Shown: piece by piece, positions 27,949 to 54,896 of the stretch
Position numbering within the stretch: the first letter of the stretch is position 1
Layout: the number at the start of each line of letters is the position of its first letter
Source: a virus
Length of the DNA stretch: 64,000 nt
Virus record (IMG/VR): IMGVR_UViG_3300047094_001400
Span: 6,473 to 70,472 of that record
Reading direction: 5' to 3' (one strand)
Translations under genes and position numbers: made by a program
Notes under the pieces: generated by a model
What the model was told of the DNA's origin: nothing
What the model saw: only the letters and a program-made list of their open reading frames with translations
Databases searched by the model: none

Positions 27949-28248
27949 TTACTTTTCCTGATACATAGCCCTGATTAAAAGCAGGTAGTTTATAGCGTCA
28001 ATAAACTTTTCGTCAAGTTCTGCGTGTGTAGGCTTATGATTAGTTTGGATTGAATCCTTAATCCATTGTAGGTGTTTGGTCATATATTCCCATGCGACTG
28101 CCTGAGGTTTATCTTGTAGGGATATTCCGGTACGGAAGTTTCTGAACACATCATTATCTGATGCGTATTCTTCATTCTTTTTGAGGAGGGTTTTTTCAAC
28201 GAGTACAAGTGCTTCCTGTACTGACCTGCGTAGTTCTGAATTATTCAT
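27949..28248 (-). CDS. DUF1599/Nmad1-like all-alpha (MazG-like) protein
   Basis: 'KKNEEYA..DVFRNF..DEKFIDAINYLLL'; start moved to ATG 28248 behind a TATCTTTG promoter. Confidence 0.6.
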   Translation of the reverse strand: MNNSELRRSVQEALVLVEKTLLKKNEEYASDNDVFRNFRTGISLQDKPQAVAWEYMTKHLQWIKDSIQTNHKPTHAELDEKFIDAINYLLLIRAMYQEK

Positions 28249-28260
28249 AGGGCAAAGATA

Positions 28261-28300
28261 AAAAAATAACCTCGGGCGATTCGCATAACACCCGAGGCTA
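28261..28300 (-). terminator. Intrinsic terminator closing a short non-coding unit
   Basis: Minus strand tagcctcgggtg-N10-cgcccgaggtta followed by T run. Confidence 0.7.
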
Positions 28301-28423
28301 CCCTTAAAACCTATGTCTACGCAAGACGATATAAAGGTAGAAAAGGTTGCACGAAATAAAAAATAATTTTTTTTGTAACCTTTGGGGATGTGGTTCGTTA
28401 AGGCTATCAAAACCATATAAAGT

Positions 28424-28813
28424 ATGAAAAAAGTAATGTTAGTTTTGAGTTTAGTTGTGTTCACGGGATGTGCCACAATTACGAGTTCCACCAAGCAGGA
28501 GGTTTCTATCAATGTAAAACCTGACCATGCTAAAGTTTATGTGAATGGGAACAAGGTAGGAGAGGGAAGTTGTACTGCTGAAGTTCCTGTAAAGAAGCGT
28601 AACACTATCATTGTCAAGGCGGAAGGGTATGAGAATGCTCAAATTAAGACACAAAGACAGATTCGTCCAGGGTATTTGATTGGCAATATCGGGATGTGTT
28701 TTGTGCCTTATGTAAACTTTTTTGGCTTACCGAGTTTAATTGTTGATGCGTGTACGGGTGCGTGGTACAAGTTGGAGGAGGATGAATACTACTTTGATTT
28801 GGATAAGAAATAA
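28424..28813 (+). CDS. PEGA-domain lipoprotein
   Basis: Lipobox 'VFTGC'; 'VKPDHAKVYVNG..VKAEGY' PEGA pattern; C-terminal 'IVDACTGAWY'. Confidence 0.7.
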   Translation: MKKVMLVLSLVVFTGCATITSSTKQEVSINVKPDHAKVYVNGNKVGEGSCTAEVPVKKRNTIIVKAEGYENAQIKTQRQIRPGYLIGNIGMCFVPYVNFFGLPSLIVDACTGAWYKLEEDEYYFDLDKK

Positions 28814-28821
28814 ATCCTTTT

Positions 28822-28953
28822 TAAGTTTGTAGTGCCTTCGGAGGCGTAATTCCGGTGTCTGTGTGGAAGCGGATATGAAAATATTTCCTGTTAGGAATCA
28901 ACCCCTGTGAACAAGCATCTTCCACCTCTGCTTGTTCCGGGGGTTTTTAATTT
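28822..28953 (+). ncRNA. Promoter-leader RNA with loop-loop (kissing) terminator, copy 1
   Basis: TAAGTTTG; hairpin gtgtctg/cggatat with loop tgtggaag; small ttcct/aggaa hairpin; terminator loop contains cttccac. Confidence 0.7.
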
Positions 28954-28976
28954 ACAGAAAGTCATGGGAAATTTAC

Positions 28977-29098
28977 TATATTTGTACCCGTACAATGGTA
29001 CTATCCGGGTGAGAGCGGATAAGAAAAATTTCCTTTTAGGAAACCAAACCCCTTGAAGCAGGTGACTCTCACCACCTGTTTCGGGGGTTTTTAATTTT
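28977..29098 (+). ncRNA. Promoter-leader RNA with loop-loop terminator, copy 2 (leader of replication operon)
   Basis: TATATTTG; tatccg/cggata with loop ggtgagag; small ttcct/aggaa hairpin; terminator apex ctctcacc. Confidence 0.75.
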
Positions 29099-29107
29099 AA
29101 GAAAGCC

Positions 29108-29476
29108 GTGGAAGAAAAATTGCCAGAAACAACTTCTCAAGATTCTGAAATCATTGAGTTCAAAATTCCTTTAAGTGTATTGGAATCTTGCAAATTAACA
29201 GGAGAGCAAAAACTTATATGGCTTATAGCCAACAAGTTAAATGAAAAAGACAAAGAGTATGATGTTCAAATACTTGAGCATTTTTTGTGTATCAGCAAAC
29301 ACAGAATTTATAAGTTAGTAAACGATATGATTCGTGATGGGTATTTGAAAAAGATAACAACAACCAAGGAAATAAAAGATATGATATGCACTGAAAAGGA
29401 AACAGAATCCTATTTGGTTGCCATTGTTCCTTCTATTTTAGACGATAATTCAGATAACGATTCAGCTCCATTTTAA
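29108..29476 (+). CDS. Winged-HTH-like protein with acidic 'DSAPF' tail
   Basis: GTG start; 'LTGEQKLIW..ISKHRIYKLVNDMIRDGYL'. Confidence 0.55.
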   Translation: MEEKLPETTSQDSEIIEFKIPLSVLESCKLTGEQKLIWLIANKLNEKDKEYDVQILEHFLCISKHRIYKLVNDMIRDGYLKKITTTKEIKDMICTEKETESYLVAIVPSILDDNSDNDSAPF

Positions 29477-29481
29477 TAGTT

Positions 29482-30558
29482 ATGGTACATATAATTCATT
29501 CTCAAATAGCGGAAGTTTATGGAATAGAAGAATCCATAATCCTGCAAAATATTTTCTACTGGGTAAGCAAGAATAAGGCTAACCAAAAAAACTTCCATGA
29601 TGGGCACTATTGGACTTACAATAGCAGTCAAGGATTAACAGAACTATTTCCTTTTATGGCTCCATATCCGAAAGGCGAAGATGGACTTCCTGATACTTCA
29701 AAGCCAAGGACAAACCAAAGGATTAAACGGGTTATCAAGAATCTTATTGAGGCAGGATTGATAAAATCCGGAAACTACAATAAGACAGGATATGATAGAA
29801 CTGCATGGTACACACTTACAGAACAAGGTGAAAACTTATTCAACTCAATAAATTGTACCATCCATGGTTCAAAAATGAACAATGGAAAGTTTGAAAATGA
29901 ACCACCTATACCAAAAGAATACACAGAAGAAAACAAAGAAGAAAAGATTAAATTACATTCCCCTCAATCTTCTGAAGAAGATTTTCAGGGTGAAACACAG
30001 GAAGATTTTTCTTCTCAAAAAGGGCAAGAAGAAATTCAGGTTGAAGAGAAAAAGAATACCAACCCATACCAACTCACTGATTCAGATATGAACCTATTGA
30101 AATCCTATCAAAAAGGATTCATTGAAGAAATTGACAAGGTTGCAAAGGTAAAGTATGACAAAAAATTAATTCACTTGTGCAAAACATTCAACCTGCTGAA
30201 CAAAGACAGAGAACTATTGAAAGCCATTTACATTTATTTCAGAACTTATCGTGACCATTTTGGAACATATACAACTGAAATCCGTTCATTCAAAGCCTTG
30301 AACGAAAAGATTGAAAAATTACAGGCTGAAATGATTAGAGAAACCAAAAGGGTTATCAAAGAATCCGGTAGTGTAGTATTGCACCAAGACAAAGAAAAGA
30401 AGATTGCCGTTATCTATAAATCAGATTCAATGAAAAAAGATGATAAAAACAGGATTGATGATTTTAAGAGAATCGGGTACACTGTTTTTGATATGTATAA
30501 AACCATTGGTCACATAGAATTAAAAGACCTTGGCTACCATGTACAACATGTATATTGA
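29482..30558 (+). CDS. Phage replication initiator (N-terminal wHTH)
   Basis: 'IAEVYGIEESIILQNIFYW..HDGHYWTYNS..GNYNKTGYDRTAWY' resembles phage replisome-organiser N-termini. Confidence 0.7.
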   Translation: MVHIIHSQIAEVYGIEESIILQNIFYWVSKNKANQKNFHDGHYWTYNSSQGLTELFPFMAPYPKGEDGLPDTSKPRTNQRIKRVIKNLIEAGLIKSGNYNKTGYDRTAWYTLTEQGENLFNSINCTIHGSKMNNGKFENEPPIPKEYTEENKEEKIKLHSPQSSEEDFQGETQEDFSSQKGQEEIQVEEKKNTNPYQLTDSDMNLLKSYQKGFIEEIDKVAKVKYDKKLIHLCKTFNLLNKDRELLKAIYIYFRTYRDHFGTYTTEIRSFKALNEKIEKLQAEMIRETKRVIKESGSVVLHQDKEKKIAVIYKSDSMKKDDKNRIDDFKRIGYTVFDMYKTIGHIELKDLGYHVQHVY

Positions 30559-30560
30559 TA

Positions 30561-32372
30561 ATGGACACATTTGAAAGCCATGGCATAATCGGAGTAAACT
30601 ACTCAAAACTGGAAGAACAACTTCTGCTCTGTCCTGTTTGTAGTCATACCCGTAAAAAGAAAAAAGACAAGTGCCTTGGCGTAAATGTCGGTAAAGGAGT
30701 TTGGGGTTGTAATCATTGCGGTTGGGCTGGAGCATTAAAAAAACAAATGGAATTTATACCACCTGTCAGAAACTATTCATTGCCTAAAGTTGAAGTACAC
30801 CCTATTTCAAACAAGGCTCTCATTTGGTTTGAAACAGACAGAGGTATAAACAGACAAACCCTGCAACACTTCAAAGTATTCTCCGATAAGAAATACTTTT
30901 TTCAGAAAGGAGATATACAAGCCGGAGAATCCTCCTGCATTGCATTCCCGTACTTCCGTGATGAAACAATAATCAACTGCAAATATCGTGATGGCAGAAA
31001 GCGTTTTACCCTTGAAACAGGTGCTGAATTAATAGCCTATAACGAAAACTCAATTAGAGGCTCAAGGGAAGTAGTTATTGTGGAAGGTGAACTCGATGTA
31101 TTATCCGTATGGCAAAGTGGCTACAAAGGCGTTATTTCACCTCCTAATGGGGCTAATTTGAATAGGAACAACCTTGAATGGTTGGATAAGATTTATGACC
31201 TGTTTGAAAATATTGATAAAATAATCATTGCAGTTGATAATGATTCTGCAGGAGAAAGTCTCAAGTTAGACCTCATTCGTAGATTCGGTAGCGAAAGAAC
31301 TTGGGTTGTCAGTTGGATAGATGATTGCAAAGATGCCAATGAAGTACTCTTAAAGTACGGAGAAGAAGCGGTAAGAACCTGCATTAAAGAGGCAAAACAA
31401 CTGCCCTTGGAGGGAATTGTTGAGCATGACAAGTTAGAAATGTCCGTGCTGAACTACTACGACCATGGACTTCCGCAAGGATTGACTGTAAGTTGGACTA
31501 AGTTTAGTGAAAGTTTTAAGGTTATTCGTGGGGAGTTTATGGTGGTTACGGGAATACCTTCTCACGGGAAGTCTGTATGGAGTGAAAACTATATGATTCA
31601 GTTGGCAAGGTTACACGATTGGAAGTTTGGGGTATGCGTGTTTGAAAGTGATCCGGAGATAATGGCGGTAAACCTGATTCAGTTACTTATCCGCAAGAAA
31701 TTCTTTGGCAACAACAGGCTATCTGAAATGGAAAGGGACTATGCCATGGACTTTATTAAGAATCATTTCTACTTTTTTGATGTGGGAGAGGGAGGAAATA
31801 CCTTGGATAATATCCTGAAACGAGGGGAAGAGCTTGTCAGAAGGCACGGAATTGATATGCTTTACATTGACCCTTGGAGTTATGTGGAAAAGGACAGAGG
31901 TAGAATGAATGATTCAGAATACTTTGAGGCACAGTTGCCAAAAATGAAGTCTTTCAGGAGAAGAAACAACTGCTCAATACTTTTGGTAGCACACCCAAGG
32001 AAGATGGACAGGGATAAAAATACCAACAAACTACGGGTTCCTGAGCCATACGATATTGGGGGAAGTAACCAGTGGTATGGAGCACCCGATAAGATTATCA
32101 GCGTGTATGCAAACTATTCTGAAGATGGGGTAATTTTGAACCACACCATATACATTCAGAAACAAAAGAAGTGGTGGCTTGGTAAAAAGGGAGAGGTAGA
32201 GTTTAAGATGTTGGACCATGGAGAGTTCATAGAGTTGCAGGAATATAACCAACGGGATATGAATCAGCCATCTTTTAAGGAAAGACAAGCGAATGATGAC
32301 ACTATGAAATCAGTAAAAGTAGAGGAAGAAAATAATGATGACAGTATGGGACAAGATACAGCCCCTTTTTAA
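30561..32372 (+). CDS. T7 gp4/Twinkle-like primase-helicase
   Basis: Zn finger CPVC..CNHCG, TOPRIM 'VEGELD' and 'AVDNDSAG..KDANE', Walker A 'GIPSHGKS', 'LVAHPRK'. Confidence 0.9.
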   Translation: MDTFESHGIIGVNYSKLEEQLLLCPVCSHTRKKKKDKCLGVNVGKGVWGCNHCGWAGALKKQMEFIPPVRNYSLPKVEVHPISNKALIWFETDRGINRQTLQHFKVFSDKKYFFQKGDIQAGESSCIAFPYFRDETIINCKYRDGRKRFTLETGAELIAYNENSIRGSREVVIVEGELDVLSVWQSGYKGVISPPNGANLNRNNLEWLDKIYDLFENIDKIIIAVDNDSAGESLKLDLIRRFGSERTWVVSWIDDCKDANEVLLKYGEEAVRTCIKEAKQLPLEGIVEHDKLEMSVLNYYDHGLPQGLTVSWTKFSESFKVIRGEFMVVTGIPSHGKSVWSENYMIQLARLHDWKFGVCVFESDPEIMAVNLIQLLIRKKFFGNNRLSEMERDYAMDFIKNHFYFFDVGEGGNTLDNILKRGEELVRRHGIDMLYIDPWSYVEKDRGRMNDSEYFEAQLPKMKSFRRRNNCSILLVAHPRKMDRDKNTNKLRVPEPYDIGGSNQWYGAPDKIISVYANYSEDGVILNHTIYIQKQKKWWLGKKGEVEFKMLDHGEFIELQEYNQRDMNQPSFKERQANDDTMKSVKVEEENNDDSMGQDTAPF

Positions 32373-32903: not shown

Positions 32904-34208
32904 ATGCAAATAATAGACTTATTTTCAGGGGTAGGTGGTTTTAGTATTGCAGGACATCAACTTGGTTGGGAAACCATTTTGTTTTGCGAGAAAGAACCAT
33001 TCCCACAAATGGTATTACGGGAGAGATTTCCAGGAGTACCTATTTTTGACGATGTTTGTAAATTAACAGGAGAAAAAATCAATGGACTTATTCAATCAGA
33101 CAGACCAATTATCCTCACAGGAGGTTTTCCTTGTCAACCGTTTTCAGTCGCAGGAGCAAGAGAGGGTACAGAAGATTCTCGACATCTCTGGCCGGAAATG
33201 TTTAGAATTATCAAAGCAGTCCGCCCGGACTACATTATTGGGGAGAATGTGCCTGGATTACTTAGTATTGAAGGGGGAATGGTATTTGAACAGGTGTGCC
33301 TTGACTTGGAAAGCGAAGGCTACGAAGTCCAGGCGTTTGTACTTCCAGCTTGTGCCACAGGTGCACCGCACAGACGGGACAGAGTTTGGATTGTTGGATA
33401 TAATGCCAACACCGAGAGCAAACGACAAGAATCATTCACTACAAGGGCAGAAAAGTTTCAATCACAGATTAGAACGGGGTTATTTTGCGGAGGTAGCCCT
33501 GAATGGGATATTAGTGGAGAGGATGCAGGGGCTAATGGCAACCCCGAACACAATGGACCACCTTCCGAGCCGGAGTTACGAAGCAATGAAAAAACAGGCA
33601 ACAACAGGTGGCAGGAAGAACAGACAACGCCCGAGCAACCTTCGGGAGCAGATAGACCCGTTGATGCAACAGGCATATACGGAGGCAAGGTTGGAGGCAA
33701 ACGGGTTACTCCCGACACCAACGAAATTCGATTACAACTCAGCAAGAACACCGGAGAAATGGGAGGAGGACAAAGAGAAATACAAGAATCAAGGTGTGAA
33801 TCTTCAATTACCTCTAAAGCAAATGGCAACATTGGGGTTACTCCCGACACCACAAGTAATGGACATACGGGAGGATATTCGGAAACCAGAGGAGAGGTCG
33901 GAGAAAGCCAACAAAGGGGGTTGCTCGAATCTTCGGGAGTCAATTCAGGTAACTACTGGGGAAACTGGCCATCTATCTCACCTTTTCACTCTGGATATGA
34001 TGGGATTTCCGAAGACATGGTGCGACATATCCGAACCACTCTTGCAGAGGCTGGAGAAACGCCTGAAAACATTGAAGCGTATATCCGAAAAGAAACCAAC
34101 TGGCTCAGGAAACAAGCAATAATGGCAGCAGGAAACGCAGTAGTTCCAACAGTAGTTTTACAAGTTATGAAAGCAATACAGAATCATTATGAAAATACTA
34201 ACGATTGA
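32904..34208 (+). CDS. DNA (cytosine-5) methyltransferase, alpha-like polypeptide
   Basis: Motif I 'DLFSGVGG', IV 'GGFPCQPFS', VI 'ENVPG', VIII 'HRRDRVW', X 'AGNAVVP'. Confidence 0.9.
   Translation: MQIIDLFSGVGGFSIAGHQLGWETILFCEKEPFPQMVLRERFPGVPIFDDVCKLTGEKINGLIQSDRPIILTGGFPCQPFSVAGAREGTEDSRHLWPEMFRIIKAVRPDYIIGENVPGLLSIEGGMVFEQVCLDLESEGYEVQAFVLPACATGAPHRRDRVWIVGYNANTESKRQESFTTRAEKFQSQIRTGLFCGGSPEWDISGEDAGANGNPEHNGPPSEPELRSNEKTGNNRWQEEQTTPEQPSGADRPVDATGIYGGKVGGKRVTPDTNEIRLQLSKNTGEMGGGQREIQESRCESSITSKANGNIGVTPDTTSNGHTGGYSETRGEVGESQQRGLLESSGVNSGNYWGNWPSISPFHSGYDGISEDMVRHIRTTLAEAGETPENIEAYIRKETNWLRKQAIMAAGNAVVPTVVLQVMKAIQNHYENTND
33082..34122 (+). CDS. Nested alternative-frame methyltransferase subunit (TRD-like repeats and motif IX)
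   Basis: 346-aa +1-frame ORF with four (L/M)(P/A)TP..D repeats and 'LSHLFTLDMMGFPKTW'. Confidence 0.7.
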   Translation: MDLFNQTDQLSSQEVFLVNRFQSQEQERVQKILDISGRKCLELSKQSARTTLLGRMCLDYLVLKGEWYLNRCALTWKAKATKSRRLYFQLVPQVHRTDGTEFGLLDIMPTPRANDKNHSLQGQKSFNHRLERGYFAEVALNGILVERMQGLMATPNTMDHLPSRSYEAMKKQATTGGRKNRQRPSNLREQIDPLMQQAYTEARLEANGLLPTPTKFDYNSARTPEKWEEDKEKYKNQGVNLQLPLKQMATLGLLPTPQVMDIREDIRKPEERSEKANKGGCSNLRESIQVTTGETGHLSHLFTLDMMGFPKTWCDISEPLLQRLEKRLKTLKRISEKKPTGSGNKQ

Positions 34209-34737
34209 CCCTTCAATGAGCCACACAGCGTTGGTTCTATTTGAACTAAACACGGAATCCATGGAAGCCAAAGTGGCTTGGAGTACCACCATTAACACCG
34301 AGAAAGCCAAAAAGAATAAGCAAATTCGGGCAAGTTCCGATTTGATTCAGAGGTGCAGGGAACTTTATGAACCTATACAATACTACCTTAAAATATACCA
34401 ACCCGACCTAATCTTTGCGGAAACGCCATCAGGTTCTCAAAGTGCTTCGGGAATGAAGTCTTATGGAGTAAGTTGTTTTCTCCTTGCTACATTAAGTCCT
34501 GACCCTATTGAGGTAACCCCTATTGAGGTAAAGAAAGCCTCTGTTGGAAGTAAGACTGCAAGCAAGGCAGAAATGATAGCGTGGGCATTTGAGAAACACC
34601 CTGAACTTGAATGGAAGTTAGATAAGTCAGGGAAGCCCCAAGTAACCACCGAGGAACACAAGGCGGATGCAGTAGCGGTATTCTATGCCGGACTACAAAC
34701 ATCTGACTTTAAGAGAGTATTGTCGTTTAGGAAGTAA
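34189..34737 (+). CDS. RuvC-like Holliday junction resolvase
   Basis: 'ILTIDPS', 'IFAETP', 'TPIEVKK..ASKAEMI', 'HKADAVA'. Confidence 0.8.
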   Translation: MKILTIDPSMSHTALVLFELNTESMEAKVAWSTTINTEKAKKNKQIRASSDLIQRCRELYEPIQYYLKIYQPDLIFAETPSGSQSASGMKSYGVSCFLLATLSPDPIEVTPIEVKKASVGSKTASKAEMIAWAFEKHPELEWKLDKSGKPQVTTEEHKADAVAVFYAGLQTSDFKRVLSFRK

Positions 34738-34768
34738 TTTTGTAACCTTACTACCTAATTACTCGTAT

Positions 34769-34954
34769 ATGCACACAGGTCAGGAACTACGGAAACATTT
34801 ATGGAAGAAAGTTTTAGTCAGAATACCCAATGTAGGCAGTTACTTTGCCACTTTGGTAATGATTGATGAAAAACTCCATGAATGCCAAGTTCGTGATACC
34901 AAGCATAAAGTTCTTCACAAAGTCCGTTTCAGGCACATTCGTTTAATTAAATAA
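34769..34954 (+). CDS. Hypothetical small beta-barrel-like protein
   Basis: ATG at 34769; fills the intergenic gap. Confidence 0.5.
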   Translation: MHTGQELRKHLWKKVLVRIPNVGSYFATLVMIDEKLHECQVRDTKHKVLHKVRFRHIRLIK

Positions 34955-34962
34955 TAAAATCT

Positions 34963-35841
34963 ATGCAGACAGAGTACTACTCCGACAAGACACGCCTAAG
35001 CAGTTCAGGAATTAAACACCTGCTCAAAAGTCCAAGGCACTATCAACTTTACCTGCTTAATGGTATCGAAACTACCGATGCCATGAATCACGGGCAGTTC
35101 ATTCACACCGCAACTATGGAGGAATCTGAAATACACAACAGGTTCAGACTACTTGCAGACCCAAGGCTTGAACCAAATAAAGAAGGTAAGATTGAGTTCA
35201 GGTCAGCACTTAACAAATCAATAAGAGATGAGTTTATTAACCAGTGCGAACTTGATGGCGTTACTCCCATAATCAAAAAAGATGATTGGTATGAAATTAT
35301 TGCCACCGCAGGTTCCGTTAAACAAAGTCCTATCTACAAACAACTATTCCAAGATGCAGAAGTAGAGAAAGAATTTCATTGGACAGACCCACAATACAAT
35401 ATCCCAATGAAAGGCAAAGTGGATTTATTCAAAACTCTTCAAGGTTTCGCAGTAATCGGGGACTTGAAGAAACTGCCTGATATTGATATTGAATCCGTAA
35501 AGGGATATGTTAAGCACAAAGACAGGCTTATTCATTGCCAACTTGCTATCTACTCCGAGGCTATTCAGGAAGTATTAGGACTTGAAACTAAGTTCCATAT
35601 TGTCATTGGTTGCAATAAAGAAAGCCAACAAAACGGATTCTTCCTCGTTCCACAAGAACCTACGGATGGTACTTCTGTATGGCAAGACTATTCTATTAGT
35701 GCAGGTAAAACTATCTACACCCGAGGTAAACAGATTTACAGAGATTGCCTTGACAGATTTGGAAACCCTTGGGAGGATAATGTAGTATGGCCAGGAGTAG
35801 AATACTTTGCCTCAAACGAATACGGATTAATTGAACTTTAA
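34963..35841 (+). CDS. PD-(D/E)xK exonuclease (RecE/exonuclease VIII, DUF3799-like)
   Basis: 'LSSSGIKHLLKSP', 'GQFIH', 'KGKVD..IGDLK', 'HCQLAIY'; upstream of RecT. Confidence 0.8.
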   Translation: MQTEYYSDKTRLSSSGIKHLLKSPRHYQLYLLNGIETTDAMNHGQFIHTATMEESEIHNRFRLLADPRLEPNKEGKIEFRSALNKSIRDEFINQCELDGVTPIIKKDDWYEIIATAGSVKQSPIYKQLFQDAEVEKEFHWTDPQYNIPMKGKVDLFKTLQGFAVIGDLKKLPDIDIESVKGYVKHKDRLIHCQLAIYSEAIQEVLGLETKFHIVIGCNKESQQNGFFLVPQEPTDGTSVWQDYSISAGKTIYTRGKQIYRDCLDRFGNPWEDNVVWPGVEYFASNEYGLIEL

Positions 35842-35854
35842 TAAATAAATCACC

Positions 35855-36658
35855 ATGTCAGACACAAAAGCAATTCAGAAACAGGAAAGTGCACCTGCAA
35901 AAATCACTAACCCATCAGAGGCTATTGCAGCAGCCAAGCAAAGATTCCTAAGCGTAATGCCACAGGAAACATTTGTGAAAGAAGCCAATTTTGCTTTACA
36001 AATTATCCAAAGCAATCCCAAAGGATGGCAGAATGTGGATTTAATGTCTATCCGTAGTGCAGTTGAGAATATCGCATTTACAGGACTTACATTGAATCCT
36101 GCTATGAAGTTGGCATATCTTATCCCACGCAAAGGAAAGGCTATATTTGAAGCCGGATATGGTGGATTGGTGAAGATTCTAACGGATTCAGGTAGTGTAA
36201 AGAAGGTTGCAGCGGTAGTTGTGTACGAGGATGAGGAGTTTGAGTACAATGCGGCAACACGAATGGTGGTCAAGCACGAGCAGAAGTATGCCAAAACAGA
36301 GAAAGAACACATGGCAAGAAAGGTAATTGGTGCCTACTCTTGTGCTACTTTAACCGATGGTAGTTTGGATTATGAGTTTATGCCTGGTTGGGAACTTGAT
36401 AAGATTAAGTCCAAAAGCGATGGTGCTAACTCTCAATATTCCCCTTGGCAGGAAAGTAATTGGGCAGATGAGATGCGGAAGAAAACCGTTATTAAACGCC
36501 ACTACAAGTACCTTCCTAAGTCAGAGCAGGTAAGTAAGATTGTTGATTTAGATAACCAGCAGTTTATTGTTGAGAAGCCAAATATTTCTGAATTATTTGT
36601 TCAGAGTACTGAAACAAAGATTGAGGATGCTCCGTTAGACATCACACCACATGAGTAA
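35855..36658 (+). CDS. recT: RecT-family ssDNA annealing recombinase
   Basis: 'GLTLNP..AYLIPR', 'GYGGL', 'SPW..EMRKKTVIKR..KYLP'. Confidence 0.85.
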   Translation: MSDTKAIQKQESAPAKITNPSEAIAAAKQRFLSVMPQETFVKEANFALQIIQSNPKGWQNVDLMSIRSAVENIAFTGLTLNPAMKLAYLIPRKGKAIFEAGYGGLVKILTDSGSVKKVAAVVVYEDEEFEYNAATRMVVKHEQKYAKTEKEHMARKVIGAYSCATLTDGSLDYEFMPGWELDKIKSKSDGANSQYSPWQESNWADEMRKKTVIKRHYKYLPKSEQVSKIVDLDNQQFIVEKPNISELFVQSTETKIEDAPLDITPHE

Positions 36659-38608: not shown

Positions 38609-39039
38609 CAACCTACCAAATCTGCGTAAAATTGTACGGACAAGCCACCGTAGACCAATGGCTTCTGAGCAAGATGGAAGAGATACCACCGCCAACGATT
38701 CAACTCGATATGTTTAACGGCTTTATCAGGTCGTTTGATGTAACCAAACGCACCACCAGACAATACGAGGTAGTTCGGATTCCAGAGCGAAAAATGACGA
38801 TGGAGGATGTCATCAGTTCCCAGCGATACGATGCGGTGAATGTCCGGTTCGTGCTGGTCAAATACTTTGTGGATAATTACCCAAATTACGACTTCAATAT
38901 GATTGGATTGGTTTTCGGAGGCAAAGACCAAAGCACCATACGCCACGCATATCAGGAGGCTTGTAATCGCTTGGATATAGGCGACCCAGATACAATCGAG
39001 GCGTGGCAAAGATTAATGGATTTTGTGAAACATAAATAA
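38605..39039 (+). CDS. Protein with DnaA C-terminal (domain IV)-like HTH
   Basis: 'IGLVFGGKDQSTIRHA' compared with the DnaA consensus IG..FGGRDHTTV.HA. Confidence 0.65.
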   Translation: MTTYQICVKLYGQATVDQWLLSKMEEIPPPTIQLDMFNGFIRSFDVTKRTTRQYEVVRIPERKMTMEDVISSQRYDAVNVRFVLVKYFVDNYPNYDFNMIGLVFGGKDQSTIRHAYQEACNRLDIGDPDTIEAWQRLMDFVKHK

Positions 39040-43968: not shown

Positions 43969-44991
43969 TTAAACGGTTTCTTTAATCATTATAGGCATAA
44001 CTATAAAGTTATCATCAACCCATGCAGCCCTGTTGGGGGTTGATAGGTTCAAAGTAACTTCAGGACTTTTGCTGTCCTTTAATACCTGAATCAAAAACTT
44101 TGCATTGAATCCTGCCAAAAATCCATTTTCTCCTGTCCATTCGCAAGGAACTGTGGTACTGAATTCCTTTGAGTAATCCATATCCTCAGCAAATAGGCTT
44201 AATTTATCCTCAGTGAGCATAAATTTAACCATTGGAACAGTTTTATTAGTGTACTTCAAACAAGCCTCTAAGGCCTTAATAATTCCATTTCTGTTAATGG
44301 TTACAAAAGTGTTTGTTTTTTCAGGAAGCACATTCCGATAAGAAGGGAACTTGTCGCACATTAAACGAGTATAAAAGAATCCAAAATCTAAATGAACCTT
44401 TGCCCGTGAACAATCTGAATTTACTTCTATGGTCCTCGTTGCATTCAGAATTTTATGGACAACCTTTGCCGGAATCACAAAATCGAAATTCCCTTCTTTA
44501 TGGTATTGGTTAGGTTCTACCTTTAGCCTGTGTGCATCCGTGGAACAAATATCCTTACCTACAAATATCCCATTCATAGCAGGTTTAAGCTCATCAGTAC
44601 TTGCAAAGGGGACAAAGCCTGTAAGGTCCGGAATTGTAGTTTTGAATTCAGGAATGAATTCGGGAATCGAAGGGAATTCAGAATTATTTTCCCCGTAAGA
44701 CTTCATATTCATTTCTCCTGCTGTGAATGTTATTTCGTAGGTTTCATAATCTAAATTCATTTCTACAATTTGATTCCCTAAGGTTTTTAATGTTTCCATA
44801 AATTCCTGAAAATTTATACATACTTCAGGAAGGTTCTTGTATGGAATGTGAATCGTTTGTTCAAGGTTCGTACCAGTAAATCCCTGAGAATCTAATTTCA
44901 GGCATTCTATAATAGGTAATTTGTGACGTTTCGGAATTACCGCCTGCATTGGTGCAAGAATTTTGATAAGGAAGGAAGGATTGATTTTCAT
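43969..44991 (-). CDS. dnaN: DNA polymerase III beta sliding clamp homolog
   Basis: 'GTNLE', 'EFPSIP', 'ASTDELKPAMNGI', 'STDAHRL', 'KFPSYRNVLP', 'FNAKFL', 'IVMPI'. Confidence 0.85.
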   Translation of the reverse strand: MKINPSFLIKILAPMQAVIPKRHKLPIIECLKLDSQGFTGTNLEQTIHIPYKNLPEVCINFQEFMETLKTLGNQIVEMNLDYETYEITFTAGEMNMKSYGENNSEFPSIPEFIPEFKTTIPDLTGFVPFASTDELKPAMNGIFVGKDICSTDAHRLKVEPNQYHKEGNFDFVIPAKVVHKILNATRTIEVNSDCSRAKVHLDFGFFYTRLMCDKFPSYRNVLPEKTNTFVTINRNGIIKALEACLKYTNKTVPMVKFMLTEDKLSLFAEDMDYSKEFSTTVPCEWTGENGFLAGFNAKFLIQVLKDSKSPEVTLNLSTPNRAAWVDDNFIVMPIMIKETV

Positions 44992-45017
44992 TGTTTTTTC
45001 GGTTTGAGGTGAAATGA

Positions 45018-45218
45018 TTAAAATTCTTTGATGTATTTCAAAATGTCGTTCCTTGTAACATATGCACCGCCAAAAGAAGGTTCAGAGTCAAAGAATGTTA
45101 ATTTTCCGCTAAGGTCGTGTGCAATAAACCCGTCAGGTCTTTTGTAAAAATCCATTTTGTTTAGGATGTCTTTGAAATCCTGCAATGTTACTTTGTTTGT
45201 TTCTTCTGTGGTTTCCAT
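45018..45218 (-). CDS. Hypothetical protein
   Basis: 66-aa ORF. Confidence 0.55.
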   Translation of the reverse strand: METTEETNKVTLQDFKDILNKMDFYKRPDGFIAHDLSGKLTFFDSEPSFGGAYVTRNDILKYIKEF

Positions 45219-45244
45219 GTTTTTTATTAAATAGGGTGAAATGA

Positions 45245-46042
45245 TTAATTATGAATCTCAGATTTTACATTCAGTACAATACTACTAACAGGAATATTCC
45301 CCTGTATGGCTTCCCATATAAGCAATATGGAATCAATTCCGGTTTGAGCGTGTAGTTCTATCAAAACTTTTTCCGCTTGTTCTAATCCCTTTGCTGGTGA
45401 TTTTGTCGGGTTTCCTGAATTACTTTCCCGTTTGTCCTGAATCTGTGTTTTTACTTTTGCCGGAATTACTTTCCCCGTTTCTGAATCTTTTGAACTTTCG
45501 ATAATTTGTCTAAGTTCGTCCGGATTGTCTGTCCCCTTCATGGCCTGAATAACAACAGATGCACTTACTTTCCCCGTTTCTATTTCGGTTTTTATTTCGC
45601 CAGGAGCATAACTCAGGGACAAAATATCCCTTACATACTGTTCCGAATAGGTACAACGCTTGCAAATTTCGGGAATGGTTTCTCCTGCAAGTTCGAGGGA
45701 CTGAAAAACTTCCGATAATTCCAAAGGAGTTAAACTTTTGCCCGAATTCCCGTTTATCTGTAAATACAAGGAATCCGCTTCAGAAAATTCCGTTTCAGGT
45801 TTGACTAAACAAGGGACCGGAAATTCAAAGCCTTGTAAACTTAGTTCCTGCAAGGCACGGAATCGTCGGAATCCGTCACGAATGTGGAATGTGCCTTCAG
45901 GACTTTCAAAGCCTTCTAAGGGCTTAATTAGCCCGTTTATACGGATATTATCCGCAAGGTTAGAAATATCCCCATAATCCGTGCGGGAATTGATTTTCTC
46001 ATCGGATATTAAATCCGAAAAATTGAATTGTTTTACTTGCAT
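45245..46042 (-). CDS. ParB/Srx-like protein with HTH
   Basis: 'LADNIRINGLIKPL', 'IRDGFRRFRA', 'GKSLTPLE'; ATG at 46042. Confidence 0.8.
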   Translation of the reverse strand: MQVKQFNFSDLISDEKINSRTDYGDISNLADNIRINGLIKPLEGFESPEGTFHIRDGFRRFRALQELSLQGFEFPVPCLVKPETEFSEADSLYLQINGNSGKSLTPLELSEVFQSLELAGETIPEICKRCTYSEQYVRDILSLSYAPGEIKTEIETGKVSASVVIQAMKGTDNPDELRQIIESSKDSETGKVIPAKVKTQIQDKRESNSGNPTKSPAKGLEQAEKVLIELHAQTGIDSILLIWEAIQGNIPVSSIVLNVKSEIHN

Positions 46043-46046
46043 GGTT

Positions 46047-46241
46047 TTATTGGTTAAGGTAATTATTGAAAAATTCTTTTGCCGTGAATTGTGCATCCTC
46101 AAAGGTTTCATATTTCCAACCTATGCAGGTAGTATCTGAAGGTTTTCCGGTCCTCGTTTCATAGGTTCCGGATTGATTCCGGACTATGTGACAAATTATC
46201 CGGTTTTTGTGTTTGAAGGTTTGAATTACATTGTTTTGCAT
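46047..46241 (-). CDS. Hypothetical protein
   Basis: 64-aa ORF downstream of the hammerhead. Confidence 0.55.
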   Translation of the reverse strand: MQNNVIQTFKHKNRIICHIVRNQSGTYETRTGKPSDTTCIGWKYETFEDAQFTAKEFFNNYLNQ

Positions 46242-52465: not shown

Positions 52466-53272
52466 CTACGAAACTGCATCTAAACGAGCATTTGTGATTT
52501 CAATAGCCTTTGGGTTAATGTCGCAACCTATAAAATTTCGGTTAAGTTCTTTACAAACTACTGCTGTCGTGCCACTACCTAAATAGTAATCAGCCACTAC
52601 ATCACCTTCATCTGTAGAAGCCAAAACAAAACGACTTATTAGTTCCTTTGGTTTTTGAGTTGCATATCCTGTCCTTTCAGGCTGACAATGAAGCATAGGT
52701 ATATTTACAATGGTATCTGCAACTCTGCTATCCCTAACCTCATAAATACCCTTCCCTTCATCATCTTTTACATATATTTTTTTACCGTTTACCTTTTTTA
52801 TTTTACTAACAACTATTGGCTTTGCCCTTGCATCTTCTATGGTATTAAATGTATAATTCCCAAGTGCATAGAATAAAATAACGTCATTGCTTTGCGTAAA
52901 CATCTTTTTTCTTGTATCGGGTATTTTATTCATATAATACCAAATAATCTCATTGCGAAAATTATTATACCCAAAAACATCATCCATTAAACAGCGTAAC
53001 CAATGGCTAATTTTGCAATCCATTTGTAAATAAATTGAACCGTTTTGTTTTAGCACTCGTTTCATTTCAATAAGTCTTGGTAGGTAGTGGCTTTCTATTT
53101 CGCTTCGTATTGGCTTTAAATCTTGATAATCGCCAAAGTTTCTACCTGTGCCATAAAGTATATCGCAATAAATCATATTTACGCTTTCATTCGGCTGTGA
53201 TTTTAGTAGTTCCAAATTATCACCGCACTGCACATAACACGAGTTTGGCAAAATTGCCGTTTCGTTTTTCAT
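52466..53272 (-). CDS. N6-adenine/N4-cytosine DNA methyltransferase (beta class)
   Basis: 'GDNLELL', motif IV variant 'YCDILY', 'FRNEIIW', 'YATQKP', 'DYYLGSGTT', 'IGCDIN'. Confidence 0.85.
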   Translation of the reverse strand: MKNETAILPNSCYVQCGDNLELLKSQPNESVNMIYCDILYGTGRNFGDYQDLKPIRSEIESHYLPRLIEMKRVLKQNGSIYLQMDCKISHWLRCLMDDVFGYNNFRNEIIWYYMNKIPDTRKKMFTQSNDVILFYALGNYTFNTIEDARAKPIVVSKIKKVNGKKIYVKDDEGKGIYEVRDSRVADTIVNIPMLHCQPERTGYATQKPKELISRFVLASTDEGDVVADYYLGSGTTAVVCKELNRNFIGCDINPKAIEITNARLDAVS

Positions 53273-53814: not shown

Positions 53815-54420
53815 TTATTGAGGATTATTATACTTCTTATTTCTAAATTTCCTATTGGCTCTATCCCTTCTTATATCATCCAACTCCTTTTTCCTTACAA
53901 CTTCAATCGCTTCGCTTACAGTAAGTTTCATTGGTTTTAATTCACCATTTATTTTGTACCTCCTTTGCCATTTTTTTGCACCGTTACCACCAAGAACCCT
54001 AAGAACTTTTTTCAAACCTTTGCCACTATCCTTATTTGAGGTTTTTTTCTTTCTCTCCTTTTTCAAAACGACTATCACCCCTCCTGTCTTTTGAACATAA
54101 ACCCTTTGGTTCTTATCCAACTTATCTTTTCCTTCTAATGTGTAATCTTTCTTTTGAACATTATACACATTGTCAATAGAGTTTATCAGTTGATACTCAT
54201 GGATAAGCATATCTTTCTGATTGTTAAAGTATTGAACAACCTCGAATTTGAAAGACTTTGCCCCAAATTTATCAAAGTCCCTTTGTAACTTGTAGTTGTG
54301 ATGCTTCTTGTTAAACAGGTCTTCGAGGTGCTGCTTTTTTCTTGCTTTGAAATCCTTAGTTGAGCCAAAGTACACCCTATCGTTTATGATGTTGGTAATT
54401 TTGTAAACTGAAAAGTCCAT
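53815..54420 (-). CDS. GIY-YIG endonuclease
   Basis: 'SVYKITN..VYFGST..RKKQH..HHNYKLQ..E..YN'; ATG at 54420. Confidence 0.8.
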   Translation of the reverse strand: MDFSVYKITNIINDRVYFGSTKDFKARKKQHLEDLFNKKHHNYKLQRDFDKFGAKSFKFEVVQYFNNQKDMLIHEYQLINSIDNVYNVQKKDYTLEGKDKLDKNQRVYVQKTGGVIVVLKKERKKKTSNKDSGKGLKKVLRVLGGNGAKKWQRRYKINGELKPMKLTVSEAIEVVRKKELDDIRRDRANRKFRNKKYNNPQ

Positions 54421-54430
54421 AGTACTGTAT

Positions 54431-54547
54431 AAAAATGAAAAACCCTCAAGGGGTGGTGCGTCCTCAAGGGTTTCTAATACCGGGTAAAAGCCGATAATTT
54501 CTTTAGTTACACATTGTACGCACCACCGTAACAACGCAACAAAGTTA
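54431..54547 (-). ncRNA. Promoter-leader RNA with loop-loop terminator, copy 3
   Basis: TAACTTTG; gttac/gtaac hairpin enclosing ggtggtgcgt; tatcgg/ccggta hairpin; terminator loop acgcaccacc. Confidence 0.75.
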
Positions 54548-54629
54548 TTTTCTCCTTACGACAATTCCAAACAAAGGTTACATTTTTGCTAAAATATTTT
54601 TTCTTACCTTTGGTAAAAATTTGTTTGTT

Positions 54630-54896
54630 ATGGCAAAGGCTAAAAATATCGAAACCGTTGTTGAAACTGAAAAGGAAAGCACTCCTATTACAGTTACAAT
54701 TCATATTAATGTGAATGGTCGCATTGTTGCTCGTACCATTACCGTTAAGTCTGACAAGGAAATTGACGAGAAAGTCCGTAAAATCACCAGAAACATTAAG
54801 TTCTTTGGTGGTATTTTGGTTCGTGTTCTCCTCAATGGACAGTCTGCTGAAGATGTAATTTTCAAGCGGATTGAGAAAGTATTGAACAAGAAGTAA
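54630..54896 (+). CDS. Hypothetical basic protein
   Basis: ATG at 54630 after TACCTTTG (54605). Confidence 0.55.
   Translation: MAKAKNIETVVETEKESTPITVTIHINVNGRIVARTITVKSDKEIDEKVRKITRNIKFFGGILVRVLLNGQSAEDVIFKRIEKVLNKK

Follow-up and report, generated by a model that had tools for sequence, protein, structure and literature searches.

The analysed window is a stretch of 64,000 nucleotides (nt) from the virus record IMGVR_UViG_3300047094_001400, comprising bases 6473-70472 of a 70,472-base record that is rated complete. A search of sequencing runs showed that the DNA of the window is contained in lake-water and freshwater metagenome runs. Between a gene for a PEGA-domain protein (28424-28813) and a replication module, the window carries two consecutive leader units, termed unit 1 and unit 2, in which the loop of an upstream hairpin (P1) is complementary to the apical loop of an intrinsic terminator (P3). 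The word in the P1 loop is termed the address, its complement in the terminator loop the anti-address, and the helix that the two would form the kiss. The features of the two units, and of the operon that they would feed, are listed below by window position and strand; open reading frames are abbreviated as ORFs, base pairs as bp and amino acids as aa.

28822-28829, + strand: -7 promoter box of unit 1, TAAGTTTG, of the TAnnTTTG type, 27 nt upstream of the P1 stem
28834-28845, + strand: P0 of unit 1, a small 5' hairpin (GCCU-UCGG-AGGC), which the minimum free energy fold pairs in a slightly different register
28857-28874, + strand: P1 hairpin of unit 1 with a 5-bp stem, from covariance-model alignment and fold
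28862-28869, + strand: 8-nt P1 loop of unit 1, with the address GUGGAAG (DNA GTGGAAG) at 28863-28869
28875-28899, + strand: A-rich linker and P2 hairpin of unit 1 (UUCCU 28885-28889 / AGGAA 28893-28897)
28900-28948, + strand: P3 of unit 1, a 17-pair intrinsic terminator with apical loop 28918-28928 and U tract 28944-28948
28919-28925, + strand: anti-address of unit 1, CUUCCAC (DNA CTTCCAC), inside the P3 apical loop
28965-29057, + strand: vestigial 30-codon ORF, whose flank is homologous to the start regions of metagenome contigs L271 and L165
28977-28984, + strand: -7 promoter box of unit 2, TATATTTG, 18 nt upstream of the P1 stem
29003-29020, + strand: P1 hairpin of unit 2 (AUCCG/CGGAU), from covariance-model alignment and fold
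29008-29015, + strand: address of unit 2, GGUGAGAG (DNA GGTGAGAG), which is the 8-nt P1 loop
29021-29046, + strand: A-rich linker and P2 hairpin of unit 2 (UUUCCU 29029-29034 / AGGAAA 29038-29043)
29047-29092, + strand: P3 terminator of unit 2, with U tract 29088-29092
29066-29073, + strand: anti-address of unit 2, CUCUCACC (DNA CTCTCACC), in P3
29108-32372, + strand: downstream operon of a 122-aa ORF, a replication initiator/DnaD-like protein and a primase-helicase
29108, + strand: GTG start of the 122-aa ORF, with a weak Rep3_N/helix-turn-helix match
29482-30558, + strand: replication initiator/DnaD-like protein (phrog_11233)
30555-32372, + strand: primase-helicase (phrog_239)

In both units a Bacteroidota promoter box is followed by P1 (a 5-bp stem closing an 8-nt loop), an A-rich linker, the small hairpin P2, a 17-pair terminator and a U5 tract, and the complementary words sit exactly in the P1 loop and the terminator apical loop. 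The units are paralogous, with a column identity of 79%. The folds have z-scores of -4.6 and -4.4 for units 1 and 2, respectively, and none of 200 shuffled sequences folded equally well. The coordinates and the two-unit architecture given in an initial annotation of this DNA all held when the sequence was read and folded again. The promoter box of the unit 1 type has a G at -9, which is unusual and rare in F. johnsoniae (consensus from the available part of PMC6847099). A P0-like hairpin is present in most, not all, of the relatives described below. A further exact copy of the unit 1 address, GTGGAAG, coincides with the GTG start of the 122-aa ORF (29108-29114, + strand); the homologous start in L165 is an ATG without the word, the recurrence is not conserved in other loci, and it is probably due to chance.

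The start codon of the 122-aa ORF lies 15 nt past the U tract of unit 2, leaving no room for a separate promoter. The vestigial ORF begins at the conserved translation start region of unit 1, crosses P0 to P2 of unit 2 and ends in the 5' arm of the unit 2 P3; ribosomes on read-through transcripts of unit 1 could thereby disturb the folding of unit 2. The initial annotation stated that the first copy leads no ORF. This needs correction: in the window, unit 1 precedes the vestigial ORF and then unit 2, and in L271 and L165 the same type of unit directly leads replication genes.

The best cultured relatives of the primase-helicase are Flavobacteriia phages, including Riemerella, Cellulophaga and Tenacibaculum phages and 171 Flavobacterium records. 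A Bacteroidota host is indicated by these relatives, by the TAnnTTTG boxes and by the lack of Shine-Dalgarno sequences; both the -7 TAnnTTTG consensus and such a lack are described for Bacteroidota in the accessible part of PMC6847099. A DNA-level search of GenBank phages with positions 28400-29500 gave no match.

Complementary loops were scored with a detector that first located T runs following an RNAfold hairpin (at least 7 pairs, loop of 6-14 nt). A hairpin was flagged when 7 nt or more of its loop (+/-1 nt) had a perfect complement located 8-95 nt upstream of it. Of 20 terminator-like hairpins in the window, the detector flagged 3: those of unit 1 and unit 2, with complements of 7 and 8 nt, respectively, and one at 54.4 kb with a complement of 10 nt. 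Among 464 such hairpins in 1.57 Mb of unrelated DNA from prokaryotic and metagenomic loci, 8 were flagged, mostly through low-complexity 7-mers, which equals the random expectation. The loop-loop complementarity in the window exceeds chance. A further locus, on metagenome contig L161 (230-370, + strand), shows a TTGACA/TATAAT-type promoter, a hairpin region, a terminator whose loop has an 8-nt complement upstream, and an ATG 3 nt past the U tract. Its architecture is similar and its lineage lies outside Bacteroidota; it falls within the chance expectation of the control set.

A search pattern taken from the P2-P3 part of the units matched 18 viral contigs, all of which (18/18) have the same architecture. 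The canonical set analysed here comprises 16 distinct units, drawn from viral contigs, the metagenome contigs L165 and L271, contig L295 (found through its DnaB gene) and the two units of the window. Searches over whole records turned up five phage records, 24-63 kb in size, with one canonical unit apiece. An earlier exact pattern was too strict and matched no viral contig, and two further viral patterns returned five new loci, none of which fit the model, and one addition, L302, which is the contig of L295. With a relaxed pattern on genome and metagenome contigs, nearly all of the matches listed were unrelated terminators, and L165 and L271 were the only true members among them. The covariance model had no match in 4 and a further 151 sampled Bacteroidota cellular genomes, a sample that does not prove absence. 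A weak relative of the units (33.1 bits) lies upstream of a PEGA-protein gene on contigs L004 (3034-3132, + strand) and L025 (12098-12196, - strand). Its terminator is homologous to that of L021 and has the same loop word, but the part upstream forms another hairpin, the loop of which is not complementary, and the element may represent a decayed or orphan unit.

The covariance model, R1, was built from 13 units and used to realign all 16. The kiss was absent from the model, and the counts for it were therefore not fitted. The core kissing helix of 7 pairs is Watson-Crick in 112 of 112 cells across the 16 units. Five of the 7 pairs have changed on both sides and none on one side only, and a possible eighth pair is formed in 8 units. 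Compensatory changes are also present at 3 of 5 pairs in P1, at 2 of 4 pairs in P2 (the whole helix being replaced in L295) and at 5 of 16 pairs in P3, the lower 7 pairs of which are invariant. For the structure as a whole, 97.7% of the cells are paired, compared with 87.2% in shuffled controls (0 of 500 reached the observed value) and 37-55% when the partners were slid. The proposal of the initial annotation, a loop-loop pseudoknot of variable sequence in which pairing is retained, is thus borne out by the homologs, and no unit breaks a core pair. The canonical family contains at least 7 different addresses. Cognate loop duplexes have predicted energies of -9.6 to -13.5 kcal/mol and non-cognate duplexes mostly 0 to -8 kcal/mol, and cross-pairing between units 1 and 2 of the window reaches only -3.4 and -7.1 kcal/mol.

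The pairing also bears on whether the element acts as RNA or as DNA. The inverted repeats could in principle be a replication origin, iterons or operator half-sites for the initiator, whose gene adjoins the element, and kissing pairs that are all Watson-Crick cannot by themselves tell DNA from RNA. However, P1 and P3 contain G-U pairs, including an invariant U-G in 16 of 16 units, which exist only in the + strand RNA, and the promoter and the U tract are specific to the same strand. The G-U pairs, the upstream TAnnTTTG boxes and the terminal U tracts together indicate that selection acts on the + strand RNA. A DNA-level element is therefore very improbable, the more so as the element also precedes endonuclease genes, as described below.

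An exact TAnnTTTG box is located 6-34 nt upstream of P1 in 14 of the 16 canonical units, and GATATTTG takes its place in the other two. A U5 tract closes every unit, and P3 has 17-18 pairs with a folding energy of -20 to -26 kcal/mol; it was recognised as an intrinsic terminator by a consensus scan as well. The linker geometry is likewise constant in all 16, with 6-10 unpaired nt, a P2 of 4-6 bp and then 1-4 nt, and across lineages the address and the anti-address are spaced 42-50 nt apart. In 16 of 16 units the next gene has its start codon 7-13 nt beyond the end of the model, and the conserved block continues through that codon. A gap of 7-13 nt fits no separate promoter, so the downstream genes need read-through of the terminator. 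These genes are always replication genes, of unrelated types (initiator and DnaB, initiator and primase-helicase, or superfamily 2 helicase and primase). The replication-operon leader suggested by the initial annotation was accordingly found in every canonical relative examined.

The initial annotation had offered an antisense switch as an alternative. An antisense promoter box (CAAAnnTA) between -60 and +300 is absent in 12 of the 16 units, and in the other 4 it occurs at unrelated positions, none of which is conserved. This argues against a scheme of the IncI-alpha type, with an antisense RNA and a pseudoknot at the ribosome binding site. The proposed pseudoknot attenuator with a variable address consequently stands in part: the pseudoknot is conserved and varies in sequence, the antisense (countertranscript) variant is not supported, and the attenuator itself is plausible and partly supported.

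The third site flagged by the detector in the window, at 54.4 kb, is a diverged copy of the element, termed unit 3.

54433-54547, - strand: unit 3, with a model R1 hit at 54433-54535 (27.2 bits, E about 1e-3 to 5e-3)
54547-54540, - strand: -7 box of unit 3, TAACTTTG
54532-54506, - strand: P1 of unit 3 (GUUAC/GUAAC), with a 17-nt loop containing the address GGUGGUGCGU (54527-54518)
54496-54478, - strand: P2 of unit 3, from the fold
54475-54438, - strand: terminator of unit 3, with loop ACGCACCACC (54461-54452)
53815-54420, - strand: gene led by unit 3, encoding a GIY-YIG homing endonuclease, with ATG at 54420 (phrog_314, E 1.9e-18; phrog_5123, GIY-YIG)

By both fold and detector, the P1 loop of unit 3 pairs over 9-10 bp with the terminator loop. 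The anti-address word of unit 3 also occurs at 38748, which is at chance level. On the opposite strand beside unit 3 (54605-54677, + strand) there is a weak match to the Rfam family RT-18 RNA that stays below threshold (26.8 bits, compared with a gathering score of 41.3; E 0.016). Two further units, on contigs L001 and L002, were missed by model R1 and found by the detector. They lie upstream of a distant homologue of the replication initiator, have complements of 10 and 8 nt, respectively, and differ from each other by two compensatory differences. A pattern search of the L001 type returned the L001 and L002 contigs again and nothing further.

In cultured phages, the gaps before the module of a small ORF, a replication protein and a primase/helicase were read, inverted repeats were listed and the regions were folded. 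These AT-rich gaps hold other repeats of 7-8 nt, and the repeats located in a P1 loop and a terminator loop were picked. The Flavobacterium phages hattifnatt9-1, tooticki9-1, filifjonk9-1, stinky9-1 and hemulen6-2 have a single identical leader with an 8-bp kiss; elemoB, elemoC and elemoD have a 7-bp kiss, and elemoA has a different allele with an 8-bp kiss. A 10-nt kiss is present in Tenacibaculum phage JQ and a 7-bp kiss in Cellulophaga phages phi10:1 and phi19:1. Cellulophaga phage Nekkels_1 has two kisses and a three-way-junction terminator. A second leader in hattifnatt9-1 (L305:3975-4070), with a TACATTTG box, a P1 with an 8-nt loop and a 7-bp complement, lies directly before an annotated endonuclease gene, which parallels the position of unit 3 before the GIY-YIG homing endonuclease in the window. 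Model R1 placed the cultured-phage leaders correctly, with scores of 10-17 bits that are at the level of noise. They are of the same architectural class and are not proven homologues.

Two of these lineages show additional pairing. In Nekkels_1 (L313:940-1072), the junction apex has two small hairpins whose loops each complement a different upstream word, one of them in the P1 loop, making a double kiss. In phi10:1 and phi19:1 (L304:4717-4800 and L312:853-936), and in this lineage only, an 8-nt word just 5' of P1 complements the 3' arm of the terminator and could be a classical antiterminator pairing.

The phages elemoC and elemoA, which have the same Flavobacterium strain as host, were compared over 3.1 kb and are about 99% identical. 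The leader differs in 57 of 200 columns (28.5%), compared with 27 of 2915 in the flanks, of which 1 of 120 lie upstream and 26 of 2795 in the start region and three replication genes (odds ratio 43, p 5e-51). These changes cluster in three places, namely the region upstream of the -7 box, the P1 loop and the upper part of the terminator, and the loops stay complementary. The two phages have almost the same replication proteins but different addresses, so address and initiator do not vary together, and an iteron or origin is further disfavoured. No two units within the same genome share an address, as seen for the three of the window and the two of hattifnatt9-1.

The reading that we favour, with modest confidence, is a cis-acting transcription attenuator whose read-through depends on the kiss. 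Each unit would be a self-contained 5' leader RNA of about 95-110 nt, made from its own Bacteroidota-type promoter and ending in a strong intrinsic terminator. The distance from this terminator to the start of a replication module, or of a gene for a homing-type endonuclease, is 7-15 nt in the canonical family and reaches about 50 nt in other lineages. The downstream genes would be transcribed only by polymerases that pass this terminator. The P1 loop and the P3 apical loop are predicted to form a Watson-Crick kissing helix of 7-10 bp, which would set the fraction of polymerases reading through: a formed kiss would hinder closing of the invariant lower terminator stem and permit read-through, and a blocked kiss would lead to termination. 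With addresses differing between units and between close phage relatives, each leader would recognise only itself. That the same kissing logic occurs with other sequences in independent lineages supports an attenuator.

The likeliest direction of control is borrowed from the way guanidine-IV riboswitches work. Within the available parts of the reports on that class, pairing between the P1 loop and the terminator loop is described as incompatible with the full terminator, the linker being too short, which gives an ON switch (10.1101/2020.10.21.349134; PMC11611296), and RNAs of this architecture are predicted to be mostly ON switches (10.1101/2020.10.21.349134). A rough estimate for the present leaders gives a similar picture. 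Stacking of P1 (5 bp), the kiss (7 bp) and P3 (17 bp) would span about 81 Å, and about 11 unpaired nt plus the width of P2 would reach about 90 Å when fully stretched. The kiss and the full terminator would thus be strained against each other, which favours the kiss as a promoter of read-through.

Several observations weigh against the attenuator. No competing antiterminator helix was found in the canonical family, and the switch rests on the rough geometric argument given above. A Watson-Crick kiss of 7-10 bp needs no ligand, and the reading does not explain why it would be regulated rather than constitutive. The canonical kiss is about as variable as the upper P3 stem, with compensatory changes at 5 of 7 and 5 of 9 pairs, respectively, and its variability may be ordinary structural covariation. 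An identical leader is common to five Flavobacterium phage genera, and no such leader was present in Riemerella phage PJN03, the closest cultured relative by primase-helicase. Three RNA-library contigs from four runs map to 28504-28758, 28533-28726 and 29333-29509; none lies over the units, and they are uninformative on expression.

Some of these points would be accommodated by a purely structural, constitutive element, in which the kiss compacts or stabilises the 5' end of the mRNA or of a short RNA, or tunes a fixed level of termination, with neither a switch nor specificity. The kiss could then confer nuclease resistance and keep the start region unstructured. The strength of the kiss without a ligand, the P0 hairpin at the predicted 5' end of most units, the lack of an alternative helix and the covariation of the canonical kiss at about the rate of the upper P3 stem are consistent with this. 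It nevertheless leaves unexplained the 28.5% divergence confined to the leader between phages that are 99% identical, as well as the differences in address within a genome, and a weaker promoter or terminator could give a fixed expression level without a tertiary contact conserved across at least six lineages. We regard this explanation as unlikely.

Another candidate is a riboswitch, or a leader that responds to a protein: binding of a small molecule, or of a protein from phage or host, to the region of P1, the linker and P2 would gate the kiss. The architecture matches the guanidine-IV class, and both the A-rich linker and the spacer ahead of P3 keep their length and, in part, their sequence. 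Against this, the loop nucleotides, which in guanidine-IV form the pocket with more than 97% conservation, are variable here, there are few invariant unpaired positions, and there is no Rfam match. There is also no conserved neighbouring protein gene: the small downstream ORFs differ, and the helicase-type modules have none. A ligand- or protein-gated leader is considered quite improbable.

The terminated leader itself, acting in trans, is the most interesting candidate for what modulates the kiss, and it would account for both the island of divergence and the different addresses within a genome. The leader could be a self-addressed, trans-acting control RNA like the P4 CI RNA, with a terminated RNA of about 100 nt as its main product. 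The full terminator would prevent the cis kiss in this RNA, and its free loops would bind nascent leaders of the same address, block their cis kiss and force termination, which would provide dosage feedback on the replication genes and address-specific cross-exclusion of co-infecting phages. The leader is an island of divergence between the about 99% identical same-host phages elemoC and elemoA, with complementarity kept; the addresses in one genome always differ; and cognate loop duplexes are stronger than most non-cognate ones. There is a precedent in P4, where an RNA derived from the leader is reported to pair with sequences on the same strand and to prevent expression of the replication genes (available part of PMC4825925).

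Other considerations reduce the probability of trans control. The cis partner is always present at a far higher local concentration, and free loops in the terminated RNA are an assumption. No orphan targets were found, the 8-mers of the unit 2 address being confined to unit 2 within the window. The island of divergence extends upstream of the -7 box, and promoter-level differences or cassette exchange could explain it. In the canonical family, diversifying selection is not separable from mosaic recombination, a similar clustering of differences being confounded by mosaic junctions; unit 1 and L271, for example, share 218 identical upstream columns, have 6 differences within the unit and are unrelated past the start codon. 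A setting of lysogenic immunity is not established, with no integrase or repressor among the window ORFs scanned. Trans control of this kind is possible, and we consider it a minority explanation. Equally tentative is the broader suggestion that the leaders are an RNA 'immunity region' of Flavobacteriia phages, with a kissing code that gates replication operons and some homing endonuclease genes. If this were true, the terminated leader would accumulate with genome copy number, giving feedback, exclusion and allelic diversification between 99% identical phages of one host. Attenuation and immunity, like the superinfection exclusion raised by the initial annotation, are functions that we infer for the leaders.

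Elsewhere in the window (32904-36658, 43969-46111 and 52466-53272) are genes for two DNA methyltransferases, a RuvC-like resolvase, an exonuclease/RecT pair, a sliding-clamp-like protein and a ParB-like protein.

Confirmation of the cis-acting attenuator would add a new and widespread class of RNA regulators, present in Bacteroidota phages of lake, Baltic and marine origin, in a phylum in which phage gene control is almost unknown. Its occurrence in cultured phage-host pairs (Flavobacterium elemo phages, hattifnatt-type phages and Cellulophaga phi10:1) makes it directly testable. Should the address be a specificity code, phage compatibility would have a determinant made of RNA alone. The leaders also offer synthetic biology in Bacteroidota a natural collection of kissing terminators that are mutually orthogonal.

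In a search of Rfam 15, which we take to include the guanidine-IV, C4 and pRNA families, no family reached threshold. Positions 28000-30000 and 54250-54750 gave only noise at E up to 10, and the whole window gave no match for the units at gathering level. Membership of a C4/CI-type RNA family was accordingly not supported. Among the results viewed, literature searches gave no description of such leaders in Bacteroidota phages, which does not prove their absence.

In plasmid countertranscript systems (the IncI-alpha/IncB repZ pseudoknot, pT181 attenuation, R1 CopA and ColE1 RNAI), kissing loops of ~7 nt decide rep expression and define incompatibility groups. The antisense RNA is made from the opposite strand, and in the IncI-alpha pseudoknot the leader loop pairs beside the rep ribosome binding site rather than with a terminator loop. 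The present leaders are alike in having kissing loops of about 7 nt, with the loop sequence as a possible determinant of specificity, and differ in that an antisense promoter box is missing from 12 of the 16 canonical units. The leader sequences, which vary while staying matched, are also reminiscent of heteroimmunity in P1 and P7, the phages with the C4 RNA. The pRNA of the phi29 family is a small phage RNA in which two complementary loops kiss between identical molecules, according to the available part of PMC4201828. It is a ring-forming part of the packaging motor with no role in termination, whereas the kissing partner here is a terminator loop ahead of replication genes, in tailed phages with a primase-helicase, and no Rfam match links the two.

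The nearest functional match is the P4 CI RNA. P4 has an untranslated replication-operon leader with complementary segments on the same strand, and their pairing is described as controlling premature termination before the replication genes (available part of PMC4825925). The analogy drawn in the initial annotation is apt, in that both are replication-operon leaders with same-strand complementarity. In P4, however, a processed RNA acts in trans on the linear seqA and seqC, whereas here two hairpin loops about 45-50 nt apart are involved, one of them the terminator's own. There is also no sequence or model similarity to CI or C4, and the systems are unlike in host phylum, promoter type and lifestyle.

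In architecture, the guanidine-IV riboswitch (mepA motif) comes closest; there, the loop of an upstream hairpin likewise pairs with the loop of an intrinsic terminator, as it does here in all cells of the canonical alignment. In guanidine-IV, the loop nucleotides are more than 97% conserved, form a guanidine pocket and pair over a short stretch, as far as the available part of the report describes (10.1101/2020.10.21.349134), whereas here the pairing is a Watson-Crick helix of 7-10 bp with 5 of the 7 core pairs varying. The genomic context also differs, being guanidine export in the one case and phage replication and endonuclease genes in the other. Leaders with a kissing terminator loop are thus already known, and the form described here belongs to neither the guanidine-IV nor the P4 CI family; it would extend terminator-loop kissing, known from one class of ligand-sensing riboswitch, to a ligand-free form of variable sequence.

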